From the NCBI GenBank assembly GCA_041498295.1, contig JBGQIB010000002.1, forward strand, positions 1,101-65,100: 64,000 nt of DNA. The letters run 5' to 3'. Position 1 is the first letter of the stretch, and each line of letters opens with the position of its first letter. Of this stretch, positions 2,720-42,006 are shown piece after piece. The position numbers were made by a program, and so were the translations under genes. This DNA is from a bacterium. Lineage in GTDB: Bacteria > Myxococcota_A > UBA9160 > SZUA-336. The notes below the pieces were generated by a model that saw only the letters and a list, made by a program, of their open reading frames with translations, had not been told where the DNA came from and made no database searches.

Positions 2720-5700
2720 TTGGGGCCTCTCGCGGTCAAGACGCCCCGCTCGCATTCCGAAACAGCCGAGATGCAGTCGCGCCCGCGCACCCGTCCTCCG
2801 GGCACTTCCCCGGAACAGGCCGAACGAATTCAGCGCTTGCTCCAGGGCTTCGCCACCAACCCGACCGATGCTCGGGCGTTCCGAACGCTCGAGGAGCACC
2901 TGTATCTCGCGGGCGCGTGGACCGAGCTCGCGAACGTGTACGACTGTCGCCTTTCGGTGTTGCCCGCGACCGGCCCCGAGCGCGCGGAAGTCCTCACCAA
3001 GGTCGCGGGAATCTACGGCGAACGGCTCGGCGACGTGCCGCAAGCGCGCGCGCGCTACGAAGAGCTACTGCGCTTGCGGCCGCAGAACGGCCCGGCGCTC
3101 TCGAGCCTGCGCCGCCTGGTCGCGAGCGCGGGCGATGTGACTTCGGCGCTGCAGCTCGCAGAAGCGGAGGAAGCGCTGCCGCTCGAGCCGCCAGCGCGCG
3201 CCCAGCTCTTCGCCGAGATCGGCCGGCTGTGGCGGGGTCTCGGCGACAAGGAGGAAGCCCGACGCCGCTTCGAGGCCGCGCTCGAGCTCGATCCGAAGTG
3301 CGATCCCGCCGTCCAAGGCGCGGCGCTGCTCGCCGAAGACGCCGGCGAGCGCGAGCGCGCGCTCGCGCTCCACGAGAGCCGGCTGTCCGCGCTCTCGGGC
3401 AATCCGCGCGCGGACGTGCTCGAGCGCATGGCGCGCCTTCTCCCGTCGACGGAAGCTTTGCGCAAGAAGGCGCTCCTCAGCGAGGTCGTGCGCTCGCACC
3501 CGGAGCGGCGCGGTCCGCTCGAGCGACTGATCGAGCTCGAGCGCTCGGCGGGTCGGCACGCGAGCGTCGACGAACTGCAGCGCGCGCTCTGGAAGTTGGT
3601 TCACGATCCGGTCGAGCGCGTCGCGCTCGCCAGCGGCGCGGCCGCGCTGCAGATGGACGAGGCGCAGAACGTCGAGGCCGCGGCGTACTGGGCCGAGCGC
3701 GCCGACGAGATCGCCTCCGACGACGCGGCGGTGCAGAAGCTGCGCCACCGCATCCACCGGCGCGCCGGCTCGACGAAGGGCGTGCTCGACTCGCTCGAGA
3801 AGCTCGCGAATATCGAGGGCGCGACCCCCATGCGCCTGCTCGAACTCGCGGTGCTGTGCGAGCGCGAGGGTCAGTCGGAGCGCGCGATCCGTCACCTCGA
3901 GCGGTCACTCGCCAACGATCCGTACGACGGCGAAGCGCTCGAGATCCTCGACCGCTGCCTCGCGCGTCTGGGGCGACACGCGGAACGCGCCGAGGTGCTC
4001 GAGCGGCGCATCGCCGCCGCGGCGAGCAACGAGGACGCTTCGGATCTGATCGTCGAGCTCGGCGACTTCTACGTGCAGGCGCTCAGCCAGAGCGCGAACG
4101 CCGAGGCCGCGTATCGGCGCGCGCTCGACCAGTTTCCCGCGCACGTGGCCGCCGCCGTGCAGCTGCGCCAGTTGCTGCGCAGCTCGGGCCGCAGCGCCGA
4201 GCTCTGTGCGCTGCTCGAGAGTCTCTCCGCCGCGGCGCCGCCCGGCCGCGGCCGGGCCGTTCTGCTCTGCGAACTGGCGCTGCTGCGCCTCGAGCACGGG
4301 GACTCACCTTCCGAGGCGCGCGTCGCTTACTCGCAGGCGCTCGAGACCGATCCGGCGTGCGCCCCGGCGCTGGCGGGCCTGCGCGAGCTCGCGGCCACCA
4401 CGCGCGAGCCTTCGGCGCTGCTCGAGGTTTCGGAGCGCGAGCTCGCGCTCGAGCCGCCGCCCGAGCGAGCTGCGCTGCTGTTCGCTGACATCGCGCAGGC
4501 GGCGCACGCGCTCGGCGACGCCGCGCGCGCGCGCAGCGCGGTCCAGCGCTGGCTCGAGCTCGCGCCGGCGCCCGAGGCGCTCGGCCTGCTCGCGGAGCTC
4601 GAGCGCGTCGACGGCGACTTCGGCGCAGAGGCGCGCGCGCTCGAGTCACTGGAGTCACTGGTCCAGGAACGCGATCGCGCTGCGCACGCGCTCGTCTGCG
4701 TGCGCCTAGCCGAGCTCGCGCTCGCGCGGCCCGAGCCCGAGGCGCTGGACGACGTCGAGCGTTGGTATCGCGCGGCGCGCGCGAGCGCGCCCGAGAACGA
4801 GGCGCTGCGCGCGCGGCTCGTCGAGCTCTACCGGCGCGGAAACAAGTTGCCCGAGCTCGCTCAGGAGCTGCGCGCGCAATTGGAGGCTGCGGGCGAGCGC
4901 GCGCCGCTCTCGCTCGCGCTCGAGCTGTCGCGCACGCTCGCGACGCTCGGCGATCTCGTGCAGGCCTCCTCCGTGCTGCAGCCCGCCTTCGAGCGCGAGC
5001 CCGATTCGACCGCCGCCGGCGATCTGCTCGAGAGCTTGCTGGCCGAGCAGGACCGCATCGAGGAGCTGTGCGACGTGCTGGCGCGCCGCTTGTCGCGCGA
5101 GCGCGATCCCGCGCGCCGCCGCGAGCTCGCACACCGGCAAGCGGGTCTCTTGCTCGAGGGACTGCGCCGCGCCGAAGACGCAATCGCGGTGCTGCGCGAG
5201 TTCGCGGACCCAACCCGCGACGGGCGACTCGAGCACCTGTTCGCCCGCGCCCTCGAGGCCGGCGGCCAGACGCGCGAGCTCGAGGCGTGGCTCACGATGC
5301 GCGAGAGCCATGTCGCTGGCACCGAACGCACGGAGCTCCTGCTGCGCCTCGCCGCGCTCCAGGAGCGCGACGGGCGCGTGAGCGAAGCGATCGAGTGTCT
5401 CAAGCGCGCGCGCGACGAGGTGTCGCCGTCGCTCGCCGCGACGGTGCGCAGCGCGCTGCTCGCGCTGCTGCGCACGCACGGAAGTCCCGAGGATCAGCTC
5501 GCGTTCCTGGAGCAGAGCATCGCGAGCGCGCCCGACGCGGCCGCGAGCGCTTCGCTGCTCGTCGAACGCGCTCGGCTCTACGCGGAGCGCCTGCGCGATC
5601 CGGCTCGCGCGCTGGCCGATCTCGAGCGCGCCCAAGCGCAGTCGGAGCTCGGCGCCGACGACCTGCGGCTCGTCGCGGAACTCTGCGCCGCGGCCGGTGC

Positions 5701-8700: not shown

Positions 8701-10537
8701 CGAGATCGCGCTCGCGCGTCACGAGTGGGCGGAGGCGGAGCGCGCCTTCGGACTCGCGGCGTCGCTTCTGCGCGGCTCCCCGGATGAGGACAAGCTCGCG
8801 GCGGTGGCTCGCTGCGCGGCGCAGGCCGCGCAGGCGCAGGAGCGCTTCGCGGAAGCGTTCCGCTATCTCGAGCTCGCGCTCGAGCGCGAGCCCGAGCACC
8901 CCGCGGCGCTCGACTCGATGGCCGGCCTGGCGCTGCGCCTCGGCGCGCACGCGCGCGCACGCGACTGTCTCGACACGCGGCTGCGCGCGCCCGAGCTCTC
9001 GCCCGACGAGCGCGCCGATCGGCTCGTGAAGCTCGCGCAGGCGTGCGAGGGACTGCAGCAGCTCGACCGCGCCGCCGCCGCGCTCGAGGAAGTGCTCGCG
9101 ATTCGCGCGAACGACGAAGTGTCTCGGGCGCGCGCGGTCGATTTGTTGGAGCGGCTCGGCGAGACGGAGCGCGCGGTGCTTCAGCTCGACGCATGGAGCG
9201 AGCACGTGCCCGCGGAGTTCGCGGCGCGCCTGCAGCTGCGCGCCGCGCAGCTCGAGCTGGCGCACGGCGATCGCGCGCGCGCGCGCCGGCGACTCGAGCA
9301 GATCACGGACGGCGAGTCGGTCCCGGACGACGCCTGGGTCGCGTTGCTCGAGCTGATTCGCGCCGACGACGGCGCCACGCGCGCGCTCGACTTCGCCGCG
9401 CGCGCGCTGGCGGTGGTCAAGCTGCCGAAGCCGCGCGCTTCGCTGCTCTGGAGCTCCGCCGAGGCATCGGCGTCGGTCGGGCAGAACGGACCGGCCGCGC
9501 GGCGCGCGATGGAGGCGCTGATGTTCGAGCCCGGTCACGTGGCGGCGGCGCGCATGCTCGCCGGGAACCTCGGCCAGCTCGAGGACTGGGGCACGGCGGT
9601 GAAGCTGCTCGAGAAGACACTCGATACGGCGCATCCCGATCGTCCGGTAGAGGCAGAGCTGTGGGAAGCAGTCGGCCGCGCGTACGCGGGGCCGCTCGAA
9701 GACATCGAGCGCGCGCAGCGCTGCTACCGCCGGGCGCTCGAGTGCAACCCGCTGCGGCAGAGCGCGCGCGAGGCGCTGGCCGACACGACCGCGTTCGATC
9801 CGGCGGCGCACCGCGAGTCCGTCGACGCGCATCGCTGGCTGCTGGAGCGACATCCGGGGCGGCGCAGCTCGTGGCGGTCACTCGAGCGAATCGCCGCCCA
9901 CTGGAAGCGCGAGCGCGCACAGAAGACCTGCGTCGCGGTGCTTCAGGCGCTCGGCCCCGCCGGCGCAAGCGCGCCCGTCGAAGGGCCGCTCCTGGTCGAG
10001 GCCGGCGCGCCGGCGGACGGGACGGTCGCGGCTGCGACCGAGCTCCTGCTCGCGATCTCCGAAGCGGGCGCGCTGCCCGCGCCAGGCGTTGCTCCTCCGT
10101 ACGGGACGTTGGCTCCGCCGCTCGAGCAGGCGCTGGCCGCGCTCGTCGGGCCGGCGTGGAAGCTGGGCGACGCGGCGCTGCGCGGGATTTGGAGTCAGCC
10201 GGGCGAAGACTCTACGCAGACCGGTGACGACGTCGGCCGGCGCGCGAAGCGCCGCCTGAAGAAGGCGCTGCGCAGCTTCGACACGGAGTTGCTCCGCGTC
10301 CTGACGCCCGACCTGTGGCGCGAGCAAGTGCTCGGTCACGCGGCTGCGCGCGTGCTCGGCTCGGGTCAGGTGGAGCTGCGCGAGCTCTTGCTCGAGCTGC
10401 TCGCTGTCTGGCCGACGACGTCGCGGCTCGAGCTGCGCGCCAGCGGCGACCTGGCCTCGGCCGTACAGCTCTGCCCGCCTGCGCGCGTACTGCTGCTGCG
10501 CGTGGCGTCCGCGGTGATCGGGTCGCTCGGGCTCTGA
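2720..10537 (+). CDS. giant (~2600 aa) TPR/tetratricopeptide-repeat protein; start uncertain (TTG 2720 or ATG 2771)
   Basis: Single uninterrupted 7.8-kb ORF. The translation is an Ala/Leu/Glu/Arg-rich helical repeat typical of TPR solenoids (e.g. AEAAYRRALDQFPAHVAA, ARCYRRALECNPLRQSARE). All long antisense ORFs across this span are Arg-rich artefacts. Confidence 0.8.
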   Translation: MGPLAVKTPRSHSETAEMQSRPRTRPPGTSPEQAERIQRLLQGFATNPTDARAFRTLEEHLYLAGAWTELANVYDCRLSVLPATGPERAEVLTKVAGIYGERLGDVPQARARYEELLRLRPQNGPALSSLRRLVASAGDVTSALQLAEAEEALPLEPPARAQLFAEIGRLWRGLGDKEEARRRFEAALELDPKCDPAVQGAALLAEDAGERERALALHESRLSALSGNPRADVLERMARLLPSTEALRKKALLSEVVRSHPERRGPLERLIELERSAGRHASVDELQRALWKLVHDPVERVALASGAAALQMDEAQNVEAAAYWAERADEIASDDAAVQKLRHRIHRRAGSTKGVLDSLEKLANIEGATPMRLLELAVLCEREGQSERAIRHLERSLANDPYDGEALEILDRCLARLGRHAERAEVLERRIAAAASNEDASDLIVELGDFYVQALSQSANAEAAYRRALDQFPAHVAAAVQLRQLLRSSGRSAELCALLESLSAAAPPGRGRAVLLCELALLRLEHGDSPSEARVAYSQALETDPACAPALAGLRELAATTREPSALLEVSERELALEPPPERAALLFADIAQAAHALGDAARARSAVQRWLELAPAPEALGLLAELERVDGDFGAEARALESLESLVQERDRAAHALVCVRLAELALARPEPEALDDVERWYRAARASAPENEALRARLVELYRRGNKLPELAQELRAQLEAAGERAPLSLALELSRTLATLGDLVQASSVLQPAFEREPDSTAAGDLLESLLAEQDRIEELCDVLARRLSRERDPARRRELAHRQAGLLLEGLRRAEDAIAVLREFADPTRDGRLEHLFARALEAGGQTRELEAWLTMRESHVAGTERTELLLRLAALQERDGRVSEAIECLKRARDEVSPSLAATVRSALLALLRTHGSPEDQLAFLEQSIASAPDAAASASLLVERARLYAERLRDPARALADLERAQAQSELGADDLRLVAELCAAAGAHDRRIQALEKLAECAPSDELRRATWLELARLVGDGPEEVRDPARAEAVLRRLLARDGADPDAFDRLAAIYERDERGVELRRLFGERLAESNLRVGERASLALRLARLQLAAGDARLAVETLSGARTPNGDDPALDELLYSALGSAGNTSGQMQLCAERSRAAEEPPARARWLRRWLSALESANRPTAERLSVIDGLFADGVEDAELFALRLPLLREGADPESLADGLRRALEQPGVASPGARRLWVRELLALYEGPLGRPESALALVERELRDDPGLRDRGLRAARALGDEARELALLRPLAVGALDGGLPPAELRRLGLALAHAGEAEQAYTVLCRARTTAPLDREVLAALEEIVRAKDDTRELLGILGARFSAEAGEARLHVAREAVAAAARARDPKLELSWLRKLHALQPLAQDGRVRWLALEREVGGPAGRLEAVRSLVELARDSVEQAELAAAEGELLGELGQLNEASACYARALATQPRPKLAWLRAQSDLLARLGRPSERVDLLRALARHPEASAEERTRYQRERIELLASHPELREEAALELRMWLDSDPGASRSAQLERMRSLLHLYASLGRDADWCGLAERALPLAPDSERAELERRIAARLGNALGSTDQAIAAWQRVLTRAPADREALTALCSLLQRPGDEARRADALERLAASEPEASEKLWLEAARLRWQSLGDAHAALDDVDRALALAARLDGAHDLRSELCAHLDRHDDEATSLRALLSAEPDGGLAPDRWLRLAQLAAAKRESWTEAIDAAERALGLARGQITMVREVRRVFERAHSFERARDLLCDEIAAASGEDALALHRRLARIAWDELHDEELATKSLAALASSDALRTDDRERYAAALAEQGRFRESLEQRGAALKDVGDLATPAAWLELARDSLAKLDDAARARDACDRALASEPSQREALELRALLHNRLCEPAREFEDVLALAELESDAARAADRFTRAGAIARDRLDDPMRAWALFRTALRHDGAHLPALLGAGEIALARHEWAEAERAFGLAASLLRGSPDEDKLAAVARCAAQAAQAQERFAEAFRYLELALEREPEHPAALDSMAGLALRLGAHARARDCLDTRLRAPELSPDERADRLVKLAQACEGLQQLDRAAAALEEVLAIRANDEVSRARAVDLLERLGETERAVLQLDAWSEHVPAEFAARLQLRAAQLELAHGDRARARRRLEQITDGESVPDDAWVALLELIRADDGATRALDFAARALAVVKLPKPRASLLWSSAEASASVGQNGPAARRAMEALMFEPGHVAAARMLAGNLGQLEDWGTAVKLLEKTLDTAHPDRPVEAELWEAVGRAYAGPLEDIERAQRCYRRALECNPLRQSAREALADTTAFDPAAHRESVDAHRWLLERHPGRRSSWRSLERIAAHWKRERAQKTCVAVLQALGPAGASAPVEGPLLVEAGAPADGTVAAATELLLAISEAGALPAPGVAPPYGTLAPPLEQALAALVGPAWKLGDAALRGIWSQPGEDSTQTGDDVGRRAKRRLKKALRSFDTELLRVLTPDLWREQVLGHAAARVLGSGQVELRELLLELLAVWPTTSRLELRASGDLASAVQLCPPARVLLLRVASAVIGSLGL

Positions 10538-16680: not shown

Positions 16681-16733
16681 GCGCAAGCGGAACGCGAAGC
16701 GTGAAGCGCGCAGTGAGGCGAAGCCGAACGAAG
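16681..16733. repeat. copy 1 of a ~45-bp intergenic repeat family (GCGCAAGCGGAACGCGAAGCGTGAAGCGCGCAGTGAGGCGAAGCCGAACGAAG)
   Basis: 29/30 identical to 27262-27291 (plus strand) and ~40/45 identical to the reverse complement of 21784-21828. Lies in the yebC-ruvC intergenic spacer. Confidence 0.6.
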
Positions 16734-16767
16734 AGCGGGTGGCCGAGCTTCGCTCGGCCGGCCCCCG

Positions 16768-17523
16768 CTACGGGTTAGAGGACATGCTTTGCATGTCCTC
16801 GTCAGACATCTCGAAGTTCGAAAATACTTCTGACACATCCTCGAGCTCGTCGAGCGCTTCGTAAAGCTTCAGCATCTGCTCCGCGTTCTTCCCCGAGAGC
16901 TTGACCGTCGAGCTGGGAACCATCGCGAGCTTCGCGCTCGCGGCGGTGAACAACTTCGCCTCGAGGGCCTCCTTCACCGCGGCAAAGTCCTCGATGGCCG
17001 TCTGGACCGTGAGCGTCTCACTGTCCTCGACGATGTCCTTCGCGTTTGCCTCGATCGCCGCTTCCATGAGCAGGTCGGCGTCGACGCCAGCGCGGTCGAA
17101 CTCGAGCACGCCGAGCCGTTCGAACATGAACGCCACGCAGCCGGTCGCTCCGAGGTTCCCGGCGAAACGGCTGAAGATGTTGCGGACCTCGGCGCCGGTG
17201 CGGTGGCGGTTGTCGGTGGTGGCGTCGACGATCACTGCGGCGCCGCCGGGGCCGTAGCCCTCGTAGCGAACCTCTTCGTAGTTCTCGCCGGCGAGCTCGC
17301 CGGTCCCCTTCTTGATGGCGCGCTCGATGTTGTCGCGCGGCATGTTGACGCTGCGCGCCTTCAGCATCGCGAGGCGCAAGCGCGGATTCGCGTTCGGGTC
17401 CCCGCCGCCGATCCCCGCGGCGATGCTGATCTCGCGGATGACCTGCGTGAAGATCTTGCCGCGCTTGGCGTCAGCGGCGCCTTTCTTCCGCTTGATCGTC
17501 GCCCATTTCGAGTGACCGGACAT
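16768..17523 (-). CDS. yebC: YebC/PmpR family DNA-binding transcriptional regulator
   Basis: MSGHSKWATIKRKKGAADAKRGKIFTQVIREI... is the hallmark YebC N-terminus. The real start is at 17523, not the upstream 17628. TAG stop. First gene of the yebC-ruvCAB cluster. Confidence 0.9.
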   Translation of the reverse strand: MSGHSKWATIKRKKGAADAKRGKIFTQVIREISIAAGIGGGDPNANPRLRLAMLKARSVNMPRDNIERAIKKGTGELAGENYEEVRYEGYGPGGAAVIVDATTDNRHRTGAEVRNIFSRFAGNLGATGCVAFMFERLGVLEFDRAGVDADLLMEAAIEANAKDIVEDSETLTVQTAIEDFAAVKEALEAKLFTAASAKLAMVPSSTVKLSGKNAEQMLKLYEALDELEDVSEVFSNFEMSDEDMQSMSSNP

Positions 17524-33387: not shown

Positions 33388-33404
33388 GAAGCACGTCCGT
33401 CGAC

Positions 33405-33926
33405 GTGGGCAGCGTCGTCCAGCTGAGCGCCACCGTGGTATCCAGCGCAGCCCTCGGTTTCCTCTACGGCACGCACTTCGACTGGCGAGGCCGAATCGAC
33501 TGGGTCGCGTGGGGCACACTCGGATCGGTCGCAGTAGTCATCGTGGCTGTAGTGCCGATTTTCAGCGAGCAGCAGCGCCGACGCCGGCAGACTCGTGCTG
33601 CTCGCGACCATGTGTCGGCACTGCTCATTCAGATCGAGAGCCTCCTCGGCCTCAAGGTGACCGTGCCTATCCTAGGAGCGATCAGTCCGACCGAGGCCGC
33701 ACCAATCCATGAGCTATTCGCTCTCATTCGCCAGCTCGGGCTCCTCGACGAACCTGAGTCTCGCCATGTGATCGTTGCGGCGGGCAAAGCCCGGATGCTC
33801 GTTCTTCTTGCAGCGGATCCGATGCCGAACCAACAGGGTCAGGACTTTCAGAGTGCGAACACAAAGGTGACTCGCGCGCGCGAGGTAGTCGATGCTCGGA
33901 TTCGGCCCTCCGAACGCGAAGCATAG
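33405..33926 (+). CDS. hypothetical small membrane protein (two predicted N-terminal TM helices plus a ~110-aa charged helical domain), first gene of the low-GC island
   Basis: Only coding-like frame here. VVQLSATVVSSAALGFLYG and WVAWGTLGSVAVVIVAVVPIF are TM-like, followed by SEQQRRRRQTRAARDHVSALLIQIESLLG.... AGGAAG lies 13 nt upstream of GTG 33405. GC is much lower than in flanking genes. I cannot assign a family from sequence alone. Confidence 0.5.
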   Translation: MGSVVQLSATVVSSAALGFLYGTHFDWRGRIDWVAWGTLGSVAVVIVAVVPIFSEQQRRRRQTRAARDHVSALLIQIESLLGLKVTVPILGAISPTEAAPIHELFALIRQLGLLDEPESRHVIVAAGKARMLVLLAADPMPNQQGQDFQSANTKVTRAREVVDARIRPSEREA

Positions 33927-33973
33927 GTCGCTGCCACGCGCTGCATCTGATAGGCCGCCGCCCAGCGGCCCAT

Positions 33974-33989
33974 TGGCACCGTCGGCGCA
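33974..33989 (+). promoter_or_regulatory. possible sigma-54 (-24/-12) promoter TGGCAC-N5-gcGCA in the island spacer
   Basis: TGGCACCGTCGGCGCA matches TGGCAC-N5-TTGCA at the GG and GC(A) core positions. It lies ~270 bp upstream of the protease gene. Weak, pattern only. Confidence 0.2.
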
Positions 33990-34260
33990 GCTGAGGGCCG
34001 AAGCGTTAGACGGCTCAGTACTCCGGACACCAGAGATCTGCGGGACGAGTGACTCCGGCGGGTTCGGAACGGGAGGGCGATCTCGCGGCCGGTCTCCCAG
34101 GTCACCGAGCGCCTTCTCTGCCGCCCGCCTCGAGTGAGTCGAAGAGTGCGATGGACGTCGAAAGCTTCCATGCTTCCCTAAGATCTCCCGGCGGTGCTAC
34201 GCTGCTAAGAAGCGACTCACGGGGAGCCGCTCACTCCACTGTTGGCGGACAGGAACACGT

Positions 34261-35013
34261 GTGGAAGAGTGGCAGAGACGAGAACTCGACCGACTCGCCG
34301 CCGCTGGTTACCTACCGACAATTCAAGAGCTCGCGAAGAGCCATTCTGCTCCCTTCTGGTGGCACGACGCGAGACGCGCAATCGGAACGCACATCGAGCA
34401 CAACGGCACAGTCTCTTTTGTTCGGACAGACACAGACCTCCTCGGTGTCTCCTGCGCCCACGTTCACGAAGGATGGCTTAGGGACAAAGCGGCCAATCCG
34501 GACCTCGTATGCCAGGTAGGTGGAATCACTTTCGATCCCTCTAGGCACTTGATCGACATTGACGAGCGCCTCGACCTGGCGACGTATGGCCTATCGGATG
34601 TTGTGGTCAACGGGTCGCGGTCAGTAGTCCATTCGCCGTCATGCTGGCCACCCGCTGACATTGATGAAGGCGGCTTGGTGATCCTCGGCGGTTGGCCAGG
34701 CCTCTTACGACAAGAGAAGCTGGGTAGAACAGACTTCTACTTCTCGTCGTTCATCAGCCGAGTTGACCAGGCTTCGTCTGAGCATCTCGCGGTTCATCTC
34801 AACATCACCGAAGCACATGGACCCGCAGGATTGCTGATACCGGAGAGCCCGGACCTCGGTGGCGCGAGCGGCGGCCCCGTGTTCCGGATACGCGAGGAAC
34901 CTCTCGTCATGTTGGAGCTCGTCGGAGTCATCTACCAATACAGCGCGGCCTTCGAGCTCGTCCGCGCGCGACGCGCTTCGAGCATAAGCTCGAACGGGAC
35001 ACTGATTCGCTAG
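34261..35013 (+). CDS. cytoplasmic trypsin-fold (chymotrypsin-like, Trypsin_2-type) serine protease, second gene of the low-GC island
   Basis: Catalytic triad in canonical order and context: His in VSFVRTDTDLLGVSCAHVHEGW, Asp in IDIDERLDLATYGL, Ser in GGASGGPVF (GxSGGP). No signal peptide. Good SD (AGGAA, 7 nt) before GTG 34261. A sampled 60-bp stretch is 53% GC. Confidence 0.7.
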   Translation: MEEWQRRELDRLAAAGYLPTIQELAKSHSAPFWWHDARRAIGTHIEHNGTVSFVRTDTDLLGVSCAHVHEGWLRDKAANPDLVCQVGGITFDPSRHLIDIDERLDLATYGLSDVVVNGSRSVVHSPSCWPPADIDEGGLVILGGWPGLLRQEKLGRTDFYFSSFISRVDQASSEHLAVHLNITEAHGPAGLLIPESPDLGGASGGPVFRIREEPLVMLELVGVIYQYSAAFELVRARRASSISSNGTLIR

Positions 35014-35148
35014 GCGCCCGCCCGCCGCTCATCCAGGCGTTGCAGCTGACGCGCCACAGGCCGACGGCGTTGGTGGTACTCTTGGCATCACCATCGGGCG
35101 CGTGGTTGAGTCTTGCGGCGAATTGCCGCGCAGCTGACCGCCGATCGG

Positions 35149-36219
35149 CTAGCCGGGCGGCTTCGGCGGACGCCACAGGTCGACGGGAAGAGTGACTCCC
35201 GTAGGACGGAACGGCAGCGCGATCTCGCGGCCGCCCTGCCCGGCCGAGGCGTAGGCGGCGAGCAGGATCTCGAGCACGGCGCGCCCGTCCTCGCCAGTCT
35301 CCTCGACTTTGGCCCCGCCGACGCCCGCGATGAAGTGCGCGAGCTCGCCGACGTAGCCGTGCTCGAGCAGTGGATCGACGGTCGGGCGAGTCACTGCGCC
35401 GGCGCGTTTCGTCAGACTCAGGCCCGTTTCGCCCATGAGATCGAGAAACAAGCGTCCCTCGGTGCCGTGTATCTCGAGCGTGCTCTGCATGCCCGTGGTC
35501 ACGGCCCACGAGCTCTCCGAGACGAGGGTGACTCCGCTCGCGAGCTCGAGCCGCACCTCGGCGTCGTCATCGAGATCGGTCTTGTCGCCGTGCAGCACCG
35601 TCGCGAGTCGCGCCGAGACCGCGCGCACCGCGGGCCGATCGAACACGAAGCGCAGCGCCTCGATCCCGTGACAGCCCATGTCCATGAGCGCGCCACCGCC
35701 GGCCTCGGTGCGGTCGAAGAACCACGGTGAGTACGGCCCGCCGTGTTTCTCGACCTGCCGCGCCCAGAGGACGCGCCCGACCACGCCCTCGCGCACGAGC
35801 TCGCGCGCGCGCCGATAAAGCGGAGCGAAGCAGAGATTCTCGGCGTAGCCGAGCGTGACACCGTGGCGTGTCGCCGCGGCGCAGAGTGCGTCCGCTTCGT
35901 CGAGCGTAAGACACAGCGGCTTCTCGACGACCACGTGCTTGCCCACCTCGAGCGCCGCCAGTGCGTGCGCCGCGTGCAGCCGATTCGGCGAGTTCACGCA
36001 CACGAGCCGCACGTTCGGGTCAGCTAGCAGCGCCGGCAGCTCGTCGAACGTGAACGGCTTCGCGCTCGCAAAGCCACTCGTCAGCTTCTCCGCCGCCGCG
36101 CGCGTGCGCGAAGCGACTGCCGCCAGATACGCGCCGCCCGCTCGCGCGAGCGCCGCGAGGTACACTCGCGAGATCCAGCCCGCGCCCAGCAGCGCAATTC
36201 CGGGCAGCTCTCCTGTCAG
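35149..36219 (-). CDS. Gfo/Idh/MocA family NAD(P)-dependent oxidoreductase
   Basis: N-terminal Rossmann (IALLGAGWISRVYLAALA) and a C-terminal GFO_IDH_MocA_C-like region. No ATG/GTG/TTG lies within reach of the Rossmann motif, so the start may be CTG at 36219 or otherwise undefined. The region overlaps the acyl-CoA dehydrogenase stop. Confidence 0.7.
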   Translation of the reverse strand: MTGELPGIALLGAGWISRVYLAALARAGGAYLAAVASRTRAAAEKLTSGFASAKPFTFDELPALLADPNVRLVCVNSPNRLHAAHALAALEVGKHVVVEKPLCLTLDEADALCAAATRHGVTLGYAENLCFAPLYRRARELVREGVVGRVLWARQVEKHGGPYSPWFFDRTEAGGGALMDMGCHGIEALRFVFDRPAVRAVSARLATVLHGDKTDLDDDAEVRLELASGVTLVSESSWAVTTGMQSTLEIHGTEGRLFLDLMGETGLSLTKRAGAVTRPTVDPLLEHGYVGELAHFIAGVGGAKVEETGEDGRAVLEILLAAYASAGQGGREIALPFRPTGVTLPVDLWRPPKPPG

Positions 36220-41295: not shown

Positions 41296-42006
41296 CTAAC
41301 TCGCCTTCACGAGCTCCGCTTCGAACGCGCGAATGCGCGCCGCGTTCGCGCCGAGGTCGCTCTGGCCGACGCGCGAGCGCGAGCGCAGATCGACGCGCGA
41401 GCCCGCGCCGTCTGGCCGCACGCGAATCACGATGTCGTCGACGAAGTGAAAGAGCTTCGAGGTCGCGATCGCCTCGATGCGTCCGCTCTCTAGGTCGGCA
41501 TTCGTCACGTTCCAGCCGGGCAGCTTCTCCGCCACCGCCTTGGCGCGCGCGAACGCTTGTTCCGGCGGCACGTCGAGAACGACGGGCGCGATGTCCGGGT
41601 AGCCGCTCTTCTGCAGCCCCTCGACGACCTCGCGCTGCTCGGCCGGCGGGTCCTGATTCGATGATGCAGCAGCTACATCGGGCGTGAACTCAATCCGATC
41701 CGCGAGGTCGGTGGAGATGTCGTGGATGGCCGGGACCTTCGACAGGCTGGCCAGCGCGAGTACTGGCAGGCCAACCAGCAGGGGCACGATCGCGGCGCGC
41801 ACAGCGCGCGGGCGCCACGGCTTGTTGGCCACGGTTGCGTACGCGGAAGCGGCGGCCAGCCCGATCCCGAACACGACTCCGACGAGAACCGCGAGCAGCA
41901 CCAAGCTGAAACCCACGAGACCGGGCAAGACGTGAAAGAACGCCAACAGCGGACCGAGGATCAGCAGAGACACGATGACGAACGTCGGCGCGGACCAGAG
42001 TCGCTC
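41296..42006 (-). CDS. DUF1499-like membrane-anchored protein
   Basis: Real start is MERLWSAP at 42006. The upstream part of the ORF-track entry is an Arg-rich extension. Confidence 0.6.
   Translation of the reverse strand, partial: ERLWSAPTFVIVSLLILGPLLAFFHVLPGLVGFSLVLLAVLVGVVFGIGLAAASAYATVANKPWRPRAVRAAIVPLLVGLPVLALASLSKVPAIHDISTDLADRIEFTPDVAAASSNQDPPAEQREVVEGLQKSGYPDIAPVVLDVPPEQAFARAKAVAEKLPGWNVTNADLESGRIEAIATSKLFHFVDDIVIRVRPDGAGSRVDLRSRSRVGQSDLGANAARIRAFEAELVKAS

Follow-up and report, generated by a model that had tools for sequence, protein, structure and literature searches.

Serine proteases of MEROPS clan PA, family S1, such as HtrA, DegP and DegS, the V8 and Esp glutamyl endopeptidases and the Spl proteases, share a double β-barrel, the catalytic order His-Asp-Ser and the motifs TxxHV, DLA and GxSGGP. 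They are typically made with a signal peptide, a PDZ domain or a propeptide. In prokaryotic antiviral immunity, intracellular trypsin-like proteases are common components (PMC12799240, PMC12642450), and by cleaving latent effectors they serve as switches (PMC12799240; PMC12642450; 10.1101/2025.09.03.673762). The described modules are the trypsin-MBL pairs of Hachiman, Avs and Argonaute systems, the Pepco- and EACC1-associated proteases and LmuA of Lamassu. They carry a sensor (STAND, the Hachiman helicase or the SMC-like LmuB/C) and a pro-effector (MBL, hydrolase, Pepco or EACC1). Compact anti-phage systems are often found in integron cassettes, both chromosomal and mobile, and protease cassettes are not mentioned in the papers that describe these systems (10.1101/2024.07.02.601686; 10.1101/2024.07.02.601719). 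Clusters of attC sites lacking an integrase are known as CALIN (Cury et al. 2016, PMC4889954). Here we analysed a stretch of 64,000 nucleotides, referred to as the window, from a bacterium of the Myxococcota_A (UBA9160; SZUA-336; contig JBGQIB010000002.1 of assembly GCA_041498295.1, positions 1,101 to 65,100, forward strand). We focused on one gene in it, which encodes a predicted stand-alone trypsin-like protease of 250 residues and is the cargo of an integron-type cassette.

The features of the locus are listed in Table 1. The open reading frame (ORF) of the protease was confirmed with the boundaries and length that the first-pass annotation, made from the sequence of the window, had given it. 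A Shine-Dalgarno-like AGGA was located 4 nt 5' of the GTG start. An identical protease in the same arrangement was present on contigs from four other samples, which were 99.96-100% identical to the window. The protein search returned 13 homologues with identities of 39-77%. The ratio of non-synonymous to synonymous substitution rates (dN/dS) against the 72-77% homologues was 0.06-0.08, with synonymous sites saturated. This meant that the protease was under strong purifying selection. The ORF is a real gene and not a chance ORF.

Table 1. Coordinates of the features of the protease locus (positions in the window)
Feature	Position	Strand	Remarks
Protease ORF	34261..35013	+	GTG start; 250 residues; signal peptide absent; predicted PA-clan (Trypsin_2-like) serine peptidase
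Codon of predicted catalytic His67, CAHV motif	34459..34461	+	Reads CAC; invariant; aligns to the His of TNNHV in M. tuberculosis HtrA1
Codon of predicted catalytic Asp105, LDLAT motif	34573..34575	+	Invariant; aligns to DLAVL of HtrA1
Codon of predicted catalytic Ser203, GGASGGPV motif	34867..34869	+	Invariant; aligns to GNSGGP of HtrA1
attC2, attC-type imperfect palindrome, 128 nt	35027..35154	+	Begins 14 nt past the protease stop; covariance-model match
attC1, decayed and weaker attC-like site separating island gene 1 from the protease cassette	33927..34011	+	Model aligns 33960-34011
Whole inserted island: gene 1, attC1, pseudo-fragment, protease, attC2	33388..35148		Missing in L032/L033; contrast in GC content at third codon positions
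Island gene 1, membrane protein of 173 residues	33405..33926	+	Separate module from the protease
Pseudo-copy of the last ~25-30 codons of the oxidoreductase	34012..34092	-	Frameshifted; GREIALPF...GVTRPADLW; 86.8% identical to the L031 orthologue
Gfo/Idh/MocA oxidoreductase, flanking core gene, 338 residues	35149..36165	-	Last 5 codons and stop from attC2-derived sequence

Alignments were used to examine the catalytic residues and the fold. H67 (xAHV), D105 (LDLAT) and S203 (DLGGxSGGPV) were invariant in 14 close and 82 diverse sequences. Across the 82 diverse members, the sole invariant residues were H67, D105, W129, G201, S203, G204 and G246. The profile of these 82 sequences reached M. tuberculosis HtrA1, HTRA3, DegQ, glutamyl endopeptidases, SplE and FAM111A weakly (E 0.03-2), and it placed TaaHV, DLA and GxSGGP onto the HtrA1 catalytic motifs TNNHV, DLAVL and GNSGGP. 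In addition, 12 of the 14 family members matched Trypsin_2 (PF13365) at E ≤ 1, with a best E of 2.3e-5. An AlphaFold2 model built from the alignment had a predicted local distance difference test (pLDDT) of 82.6 and a predicted template modelling score (pTM) of 0.83. A Foldseek search of this model against the PDB gave 184 matches at E ≤ 1e-3, and the matches listed were chymotrypsin-fold proteases, with HtrA1/3, Esp, SplA, uPA and UmbB at the top. Against viral proteins there were 192 matches at E ≤ 1e-3, of which the named ones were S39, 3C-like or trypsin-like proteases. The identity of the protease to solved structures was 12-15%. The protein thus belongs to clan PA with a chymotrypsin/trypsin (Trypsin_2-like) double-barrel fold and the triad His67-Asp105-Ser203, and at ~28 kDa it would be a catalytically active serine endopeptidase. 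The first-pass annotation had proposed a trypsin-like S1 fold, which the family matches, the model and the profile alignment to HtrA supported. It had also proposed a complete triad of His65, Asp107 and Ser203. The triad was complete and Ser203 was correct, but a Cys stands at position 65 and an Ala at position 107, the actual residues being His67 and Asp105.

The N-terminus was examined with regard to the location of the protein. The first 30 residues are charged, with 4 K/R and 5 D/E. No signal-like or transmembrane hydrophobic stretch was found in the window protease, and there was almost none across the 82 relatives. The protein was therefore leaderless, as had been noted before, and its location is probably cytoplasmic. 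In the AlphaFold2 model, helices were formed by residues 3-14 and 18-27, and the SAPFWWHD stretch (29-36) made up the first barrel strand. The earlier description of an N-terminal extension held for the ~27 residues with the two helices, which were conserved across the close clade, but not for the PFWWH stretch, which is predicted to be part of the barrel. Extra N-terminal sequence was present in a handful of family members only.

We compared these features with those of the described proteases. Unlike the S1 enzymes mentioned above, the window protease has no signal peptide, PDZ domain or propeptide. HtrA/DegP proteases (S1C) are characterised by a C-terminal PDZ domain and periplasmic export, whereas the window protease is a single domain of 250 residues. 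Features specific to the family in comparison with its S1 relatives were the invariant W129-P-P and G246, C84-Q85 and PFWWH in the close clade, and the two-helix N-terminal module. FAM111A and the viral 3C/S39-type proteases likewise have a cytoplasmic or nuclear chymotrypsin fold without a secretion signal and were among the sequence and fold matches. However, this likeness is at the level of the fold and indicates no specific relationship, and those proteases belong to larger proteins or polyproteins. The view that chymotrypsin-fold proteases are normally secreted, from which the first-pass annotation had started, is too strong, since intracellular ones are well documented in prokaryotic antiviral systems (PMC12799240, PMC12642450).

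An exhaustive search of 1.84 billion representatives with the family profile was performed to determine the size of the family. At E ≤ 1e-3 there were 1,797 clusters, while the stricter thresholds of E ≤ 1e-10 and E ≤ 1e-30 gave 1,129 and 210. Among the best 150 of the 1,797 clusters, nearly all proteins were 240-275 residues long and were matched end to end. This is a large, unnamed family of stand-alone proteins of ~250 residues. It was patchily distributed over many phyla, and the 25 loci examined spanned about a dozen of them. A neighbourhood analysis of homologues had been suggested earlier. In our all-against-all comparison of the neighbours at the 25 loci, no recurrent neighbour family was found, apart from synteny between two Methylotenera genomes. 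The stand-alone character claimed before was thus borne out by the length of the family members, the full-length matches and the lack of a conserved neighbour. Some other homologues lay near DUF4365, an integrase or ATPases. No family member was matched in phage records, and plasmids were nearly devoid of the family, with one match at 29% identity. This member was on the Paraburkholderia megapolitana plasmid NZ_CP041744 (L111, 112687-123277), directly after genes for a site-specific integrase, a hypothetical protein and an 'ATP-binding protein', and there the family may occupy another kind of neighbourhood made up of several genes. Damaged relatives were seen in species-representative genomes: the L016 copy (9839-10472) was frameshifted and lay ~530 nt 3' of an attC (9176-9304), the L021 copy (4093-4302) was truncated, and another frameshifted or truncated relative was present in L029 (9893-10667). 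These relatives suggested frequent decay after acquisition.

The closest non-identical homologue (P0002, 77%) is encoded on a 6.9-kb metagenomic contig (L007) as a single-gene cassette of 911 nt. There are 10 attC sites in these 6.9 kb, and all genes are on one strand, each followed by a repeat of ~130 nt. The repeats start with GCCTAAC, GGCTAAC or GCCCAAC and end with GTTAGCC, GTTAGGC or GTTGGGC, which are the attC cores RYYYAAC and GTTRRRY. They fold into a long hairpin with imperfect pairing, in which the spacer is unpaired and some bases are bulged, and 15 pairs showed compensatory changes. The neighbouring cassettes encode Imm40, YxiG_2, a zeta-toxin/AAA_33-like kinase and several unknown proteins. 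The contig (L007 1-6942, ENA ERZ27267809 k141_2632818) is a textbook attC array, and an inverted attC half was also observed at 109-167. In blastn, the homology between the window (34262-35154) and L007 (1387-2274) ran from the first codon to the last attC base and no further. Since the homology was confined to the ORF and the attC, the span corresponds to exactly one cassette.

Other homologues gave consistent results. The same cassette was found in L008 with attC on both sides. A 41% homologue in L009 lay between attC sites at ~3053-3122 and ~3930-4009, a 43% homologue in L116/L117 had a canonical attC ending in GTTAGAC just upstream, and a 47% homologue in L115 was followed right after the stop by an attC 5' half. 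In addition, attC sites of the same type were nearby in L016 and L025.

The two attC-like sites of the window were examined with a covariance model. attC2 scored 58.6 bits (E 9e-12) and was the sole match below E 0.1 in the 64 kb, with a model that was built only from eight attC sites of L007, a foreign array. The L boxes and the overall hairpin were kept in attC2. The R boxes were degenerate, reading GCTCATC and GCTAGCC instead of RYYYAAC and GTTRRRY; this consensus was present in the homologous cassettes of L007, L009 and L116 and absent from the window copy. The mutated R boxes meant that the window cassette is probably no longer recombinogenic. The 3' end of attC2 overlaps the stop codon of the oxidoreductase on the opposite strand. 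attC1 showed a perfect R' core (GTTAGAC), a decayed R'' and an L''-like GCGCTGCATCTGA at 33940-33952, and it matched the 3' halves of the L007 attC sites at 83-84% in blastn. The 11-mer GTTAGACGGCT, which spans the GTTAGAC core of attC1 and the cassette start, occurred once in the window (expected 0.01), and in the 119 fetched loci it was seen again only beside protease homologues, just upstream in L009 and L116/L117. The 5' end of the cassette is common to different lineages. Two strong GC-rich palindromes elsewhere in the window, at 41769-41830 (GGCCAAC...GTTGGCC, -37 kcal/mol) and 16723-16780 (GCCGAAC...GTTAGAG), passed a crude scan for attC hairpins but were not matched by the covariance model. 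Probably they are terminators or arose by chance.

The window has attC-like sites, and no integrase was found in its 64 kb, which places the locus in the CALIN category (PMC4889954). Like integron cassettes, it has a single ORF followed on the same strand by an attC-type palindrome, homologous cassettes in an array of 10 attC sites, and two attC-like sites of its own. Unlike typical cassettes, both R'' and R' of attC2 are mutated, attC1 is marginal, and the 5' region of the cassette holds a duplicated fragment of a neighbouring chromosomal gene. The cluster is also wedged between two core genes and is not beside attI/intI. A complete integron was rejected, since no IntI was found with an IntI1 probe in the window or the cassette-bearing contigs and the single recombinase match (in L014) was Xer-like. 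These results show that the protease gene is the cargo of an integron-type cassette that has decayed and is probably immobile.

The surroundings of the cassette were compared with related contigs. The island is 1.76 kb long and lies between convergent genes for glutamate dehydrogenase (gdh) and an oxidoreductase. The GC content at third codon positions (GC3) was 0.66-0.69 inside the island and 0.86-0.92 outside. The protease ORF had a GC content of 0.59 and a GC3 of 0.66, whereas the flanking glutamate dehydrogenase, oxidoreductase and acyl-CoA dehydrogenase genes had 0.68-0.70 and 0.86-0.92 in a window of ~70% GC. L032 and L033, with 75-76% identity of the oxidoreductase protein and ~80% DNA identity in both flanks, were syntenic. 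In these contigs the island had no counterpart, and the gdh and oxidoreductase genes abutted. The convergent stop codons overlapped within CCTAGG at the L032 junction (5541-5580), and a spacer of 145 bp was present at the L033 junction (581-725). No attC was found in the empty sites of L032 and L033. The island is an insertion between two core genes. In the closest relative, L031 (89% oxidoreductase identity), unrelated reverse-strand genes were present at the junction (2757-3565), and the convergent gdh/oxidoreductase junction was observed to be a variable spot in the lineage. The first-pass annotation had seen an island of low GC. The foreign origin of the island held in view of the composition and the empty sites, although its nature as an integron cassette had been missed. 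Its statement that the protease is not a housekeeping gene agreed with the absence of the gene from related contigs where the flanks abut and with its patchy distribution.

An odd duplication was found at the junction. A direct repeat of 117 bp (33985-34101 and 35128-35243) had 71-84% identity between its copies. In each copy, an attC L'-R' half (~13-18 nt) is joined to the 3'-terminal 70-80 nt of the oxidoreductase gene, and the switch from attC to gene sequence falls at an identical point in both. The live end of the oxidoreductase is the right copy, and the left copy is a frameshifted relic. The repeat was first considered as attL/attR of a small integrative element, and this was dropped because the repeat is an attC half plus the oxidoreductase end. 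Two routes would fit the origin of the junction. One is homologous or homology-facilitated recombination with DNA of a related strain bearing protease-attC2 at the same junction. The other is that a composite cassette arose in a sister lineage. Four points are new here: that the island is a cassette, that empty sites show it to be an insertion, that the family is large and autonomous, and that the junction is duplicated.

Several results weighed against reading the protein as a serine protease carried by a cassette, and they are considered together. Alone, the window protease matched neither PF13365 nor any other Pfam family at E ≤ 10, so the PF13365 search proposed earlier as a check failed for the protein and succeeded through its relatives. 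A sequence search of the PDB with the window protease returned nothing, and the matches of the 82-sequence profile to the PDB were weak (E 0.03). The PDB search with the profile of the 14 sequences also returned nothing, and the protease was unmatched in the NCBIfam and PHROGs searches. Because the PF13365 scores were weak or absent, we assign membership of the clan and the fold only. The protease lies within them, yet it is below the PF13365 gathering threshold and cannot be counted among the recognised members of that curated family. With regard to the cassette, three of the seven R-box pairs of attC2 were broken, and attC1 was a marginal detection (11.9 bits, E 0.055 in 4 kb). No IntI was found in the 64-kb window or in the cassette-bearing contigs in a tblastn search with an IntI1 sequence as the probe. 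The duplicated 3' end of the oxidoreductase is not expected of a simple IntI insertion, which leaves the flanks unduplicated. No convincing attC was found with the covariance model and a home-made hairpin scanner near most of the distant homologues (25-46% identity, 21 GTDB genomes), so the cassette lifestyle is shown only for the clade close to the window protease. Likewise, no repeated attC-like elements were found near the Vibrio pectenicida homologue, which is apparently outside any cassette array. At the protease locus, no sigma-70-like promoter was found in a promoter scan and no terminator in a terminator scan. Finally, no sensor domain, substrate or conserved partner was found for the protease, and a defence role therefore rests on context.

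We consider the overall best explanation, with fairly good confidence, to be a stand-alone cytoplasmic serine endopeptidase that is the cargo of an integron cassette and may have an accessory role in conflict. The gene arrived as a promoterless single ORF with its attC in a two-unit, integrase-less cluster of the CALIN type. This cluster was inserted between two convergent core genes and decayed later, leaving the cassette probably fixed in place. The protease would most likely act by itself on a single intracellular protein or a few of them. An accessory role in conflict between genomes, such as phage defence or the handling of toxins, rather than housekeeping proteolysis, is suggested by its mobility, its patchy distribution and the genes around it. 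The fold, the triad, the selection, the structure of the cassette and its insertion are established by the data above, while the catalytic activity, the cytoplasmic location and the role in conflict are inferred. Taken by itself, a conflict or defence role is a reasonable but tentative idea of rather low probability. The effector or processing role suggested in the first-pass annotation may likewise be considered. The antiviral trypsin modules are similarly intracellular, leaderless and located on mobile or variable DNA, and the published effectors gated by proteolysis offer a plausible mode of action (PMC12642450, PMC12799240, 10.1101/2025.09.03.673762). However, the window protease is neither fused to a sensor nor encoded beside a pro-effector of these modules. 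The data therefore best support a description in terms of structure and evolution, namely that of an autonomous, probably cytoplasmic serine endopeptidase moving as a single-gene cassette.

A more specific explanation is a self-contained, single-gene anti-phage system that works by abortive infection. In it, a latent protease, perhaps held by the N-terminal helices, would cleave essential host or phage proteins upon infection. The gene is in a cassette, and streamlined defence systems are over-represented among integron cassettes (10.1101/2024.07.02.601686; 10.1101/2024.07.02.601719). The patchy distribution, the lack of a conserved partner and the defence-like neighbours at some homologues are also consistent with it, as is the recurrence of trypsin-like proteases in defence systems (PMC12799240, PMC12642450). 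In PADLOC, the sole match was to one LmuA model, which presumably represents the protease-type effector of Lamassu, and it was weak (E 2e-4 to 0.02). Membership of a known defence system was rejected, since this match was too weak and no other PADLOC model was matched. In known defence systems the protease is joined to, or encoded beside, sensors and pro-effectors, whereas this protease has neither. We regard this explanation as unlikely, although it fits the cassette context.

The possibility that the gene is a decaying relic, a fixed cassette that is no longer expressed and has no present function, was also considered. Both attC sites are degenerate, and neither an integrase nor a promoter-like site was detected; the L016 and L021 copies showed that relatives do become frameshifted or truncated. 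However, the window ORF is intact with all invariant residues kept, and it is identical in the contigs of the four other samples. The family-wide dN/dS of about 0.06 and the AGGA upstream of the start also argue against a relic, which makes this explanation improbable.

The protease might instead be exported or injected, for example as a leaderless effector of a specialised secretion system or as a component related to polymorphic toxins, but this is a poorer fit still. The polymorphic-toxin immunity genes Imm40 and YxiG_2 adjoin the closest homologue, and UmbB, the trypsin-like subunit of umbrella toxin particles, was among the fold matches. However, neighbouring cassettes in an integron array are functionally independent. 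No signal peptide or secretion/trafficking domain was found in the protease, and no secretion-system or toxin genes were nearby in the window or at the other loci. This explanation is very improbable.

Island gene 1 raised the question of a two-gene module, in which the protease would cleave the gene 1 membrane protein into a pore-forming or holin-like death effector, as with Pepco and EACC1. Gene 1 is directly upstream on the same strand. Its product has a transmembrane-like segment at residues 31-56 and weak matches to SLATT_1 (E 0.013) and to a holin PHROG (E 0.04), and the paradigm of a pore activated by a protease has been published (PMC12642450). In Pfam, gene 1 had no match to Pepco, Trypco, EACC1 or MBL. 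Among 5.8 billion proteins it had one other homologue (P0163, 70%), with no protease beside it. P0163 is in L118, in a context that resembles a defence island, with AAA_16/TPR, AAA_21, DUF5677 and helix-turn-helix genes and a faint attC-like 3' half ahead (L118 5853-5983). Gene 1 was rejected as a partner and the module is the least probable explanation of all, because the only other gene 1 homologue is in this unrelated context and none is near another family member, because the 77% protease homologue is a single-gene cassette, and because an attC-like site lies between the two genes.

The preferred reading, a stand-alone endopeptidase carried by a cassette, links two recent themes, namely trypsin-like proteases as antiviral switches and integron cassettes as stores of compact defence genes. 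It defines a family of more than 1,100 clusters of partner-less, probably cytoplasmic proteases, of which at least one clade moves as single-gene cassettes. The locus is also a worked example of cassette fixation, with a decayed attC, no integrase and empty sites in related contigs, and the duplicated junction of attC and gene is relevant to the way in which cassettes are taken up and become established away from complete integrons. The members of the family are small and easily synthesised, which makes them suited to phage-challenge or toxicity screens. If the role of the protease is mundane, the outcome would be an improved annotation for a family of 'hypothetical proteins'. The interest would rise sharply if the protease were a one-gene immune module. 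It is a rather doubtful but conceivable idea that the family works as a minimal module of immunity or addiction made of one protein, in which 250 residues would both sense a trigger, for example through the conserved N-terminal helices and the PFWWH strand, and cleave proteins of the host or the invader, spreading between phyla as a single-gene cassette. If true, it would be the smallest, sensor-less member of the proteolysis-based immune systems of prokaryotes.

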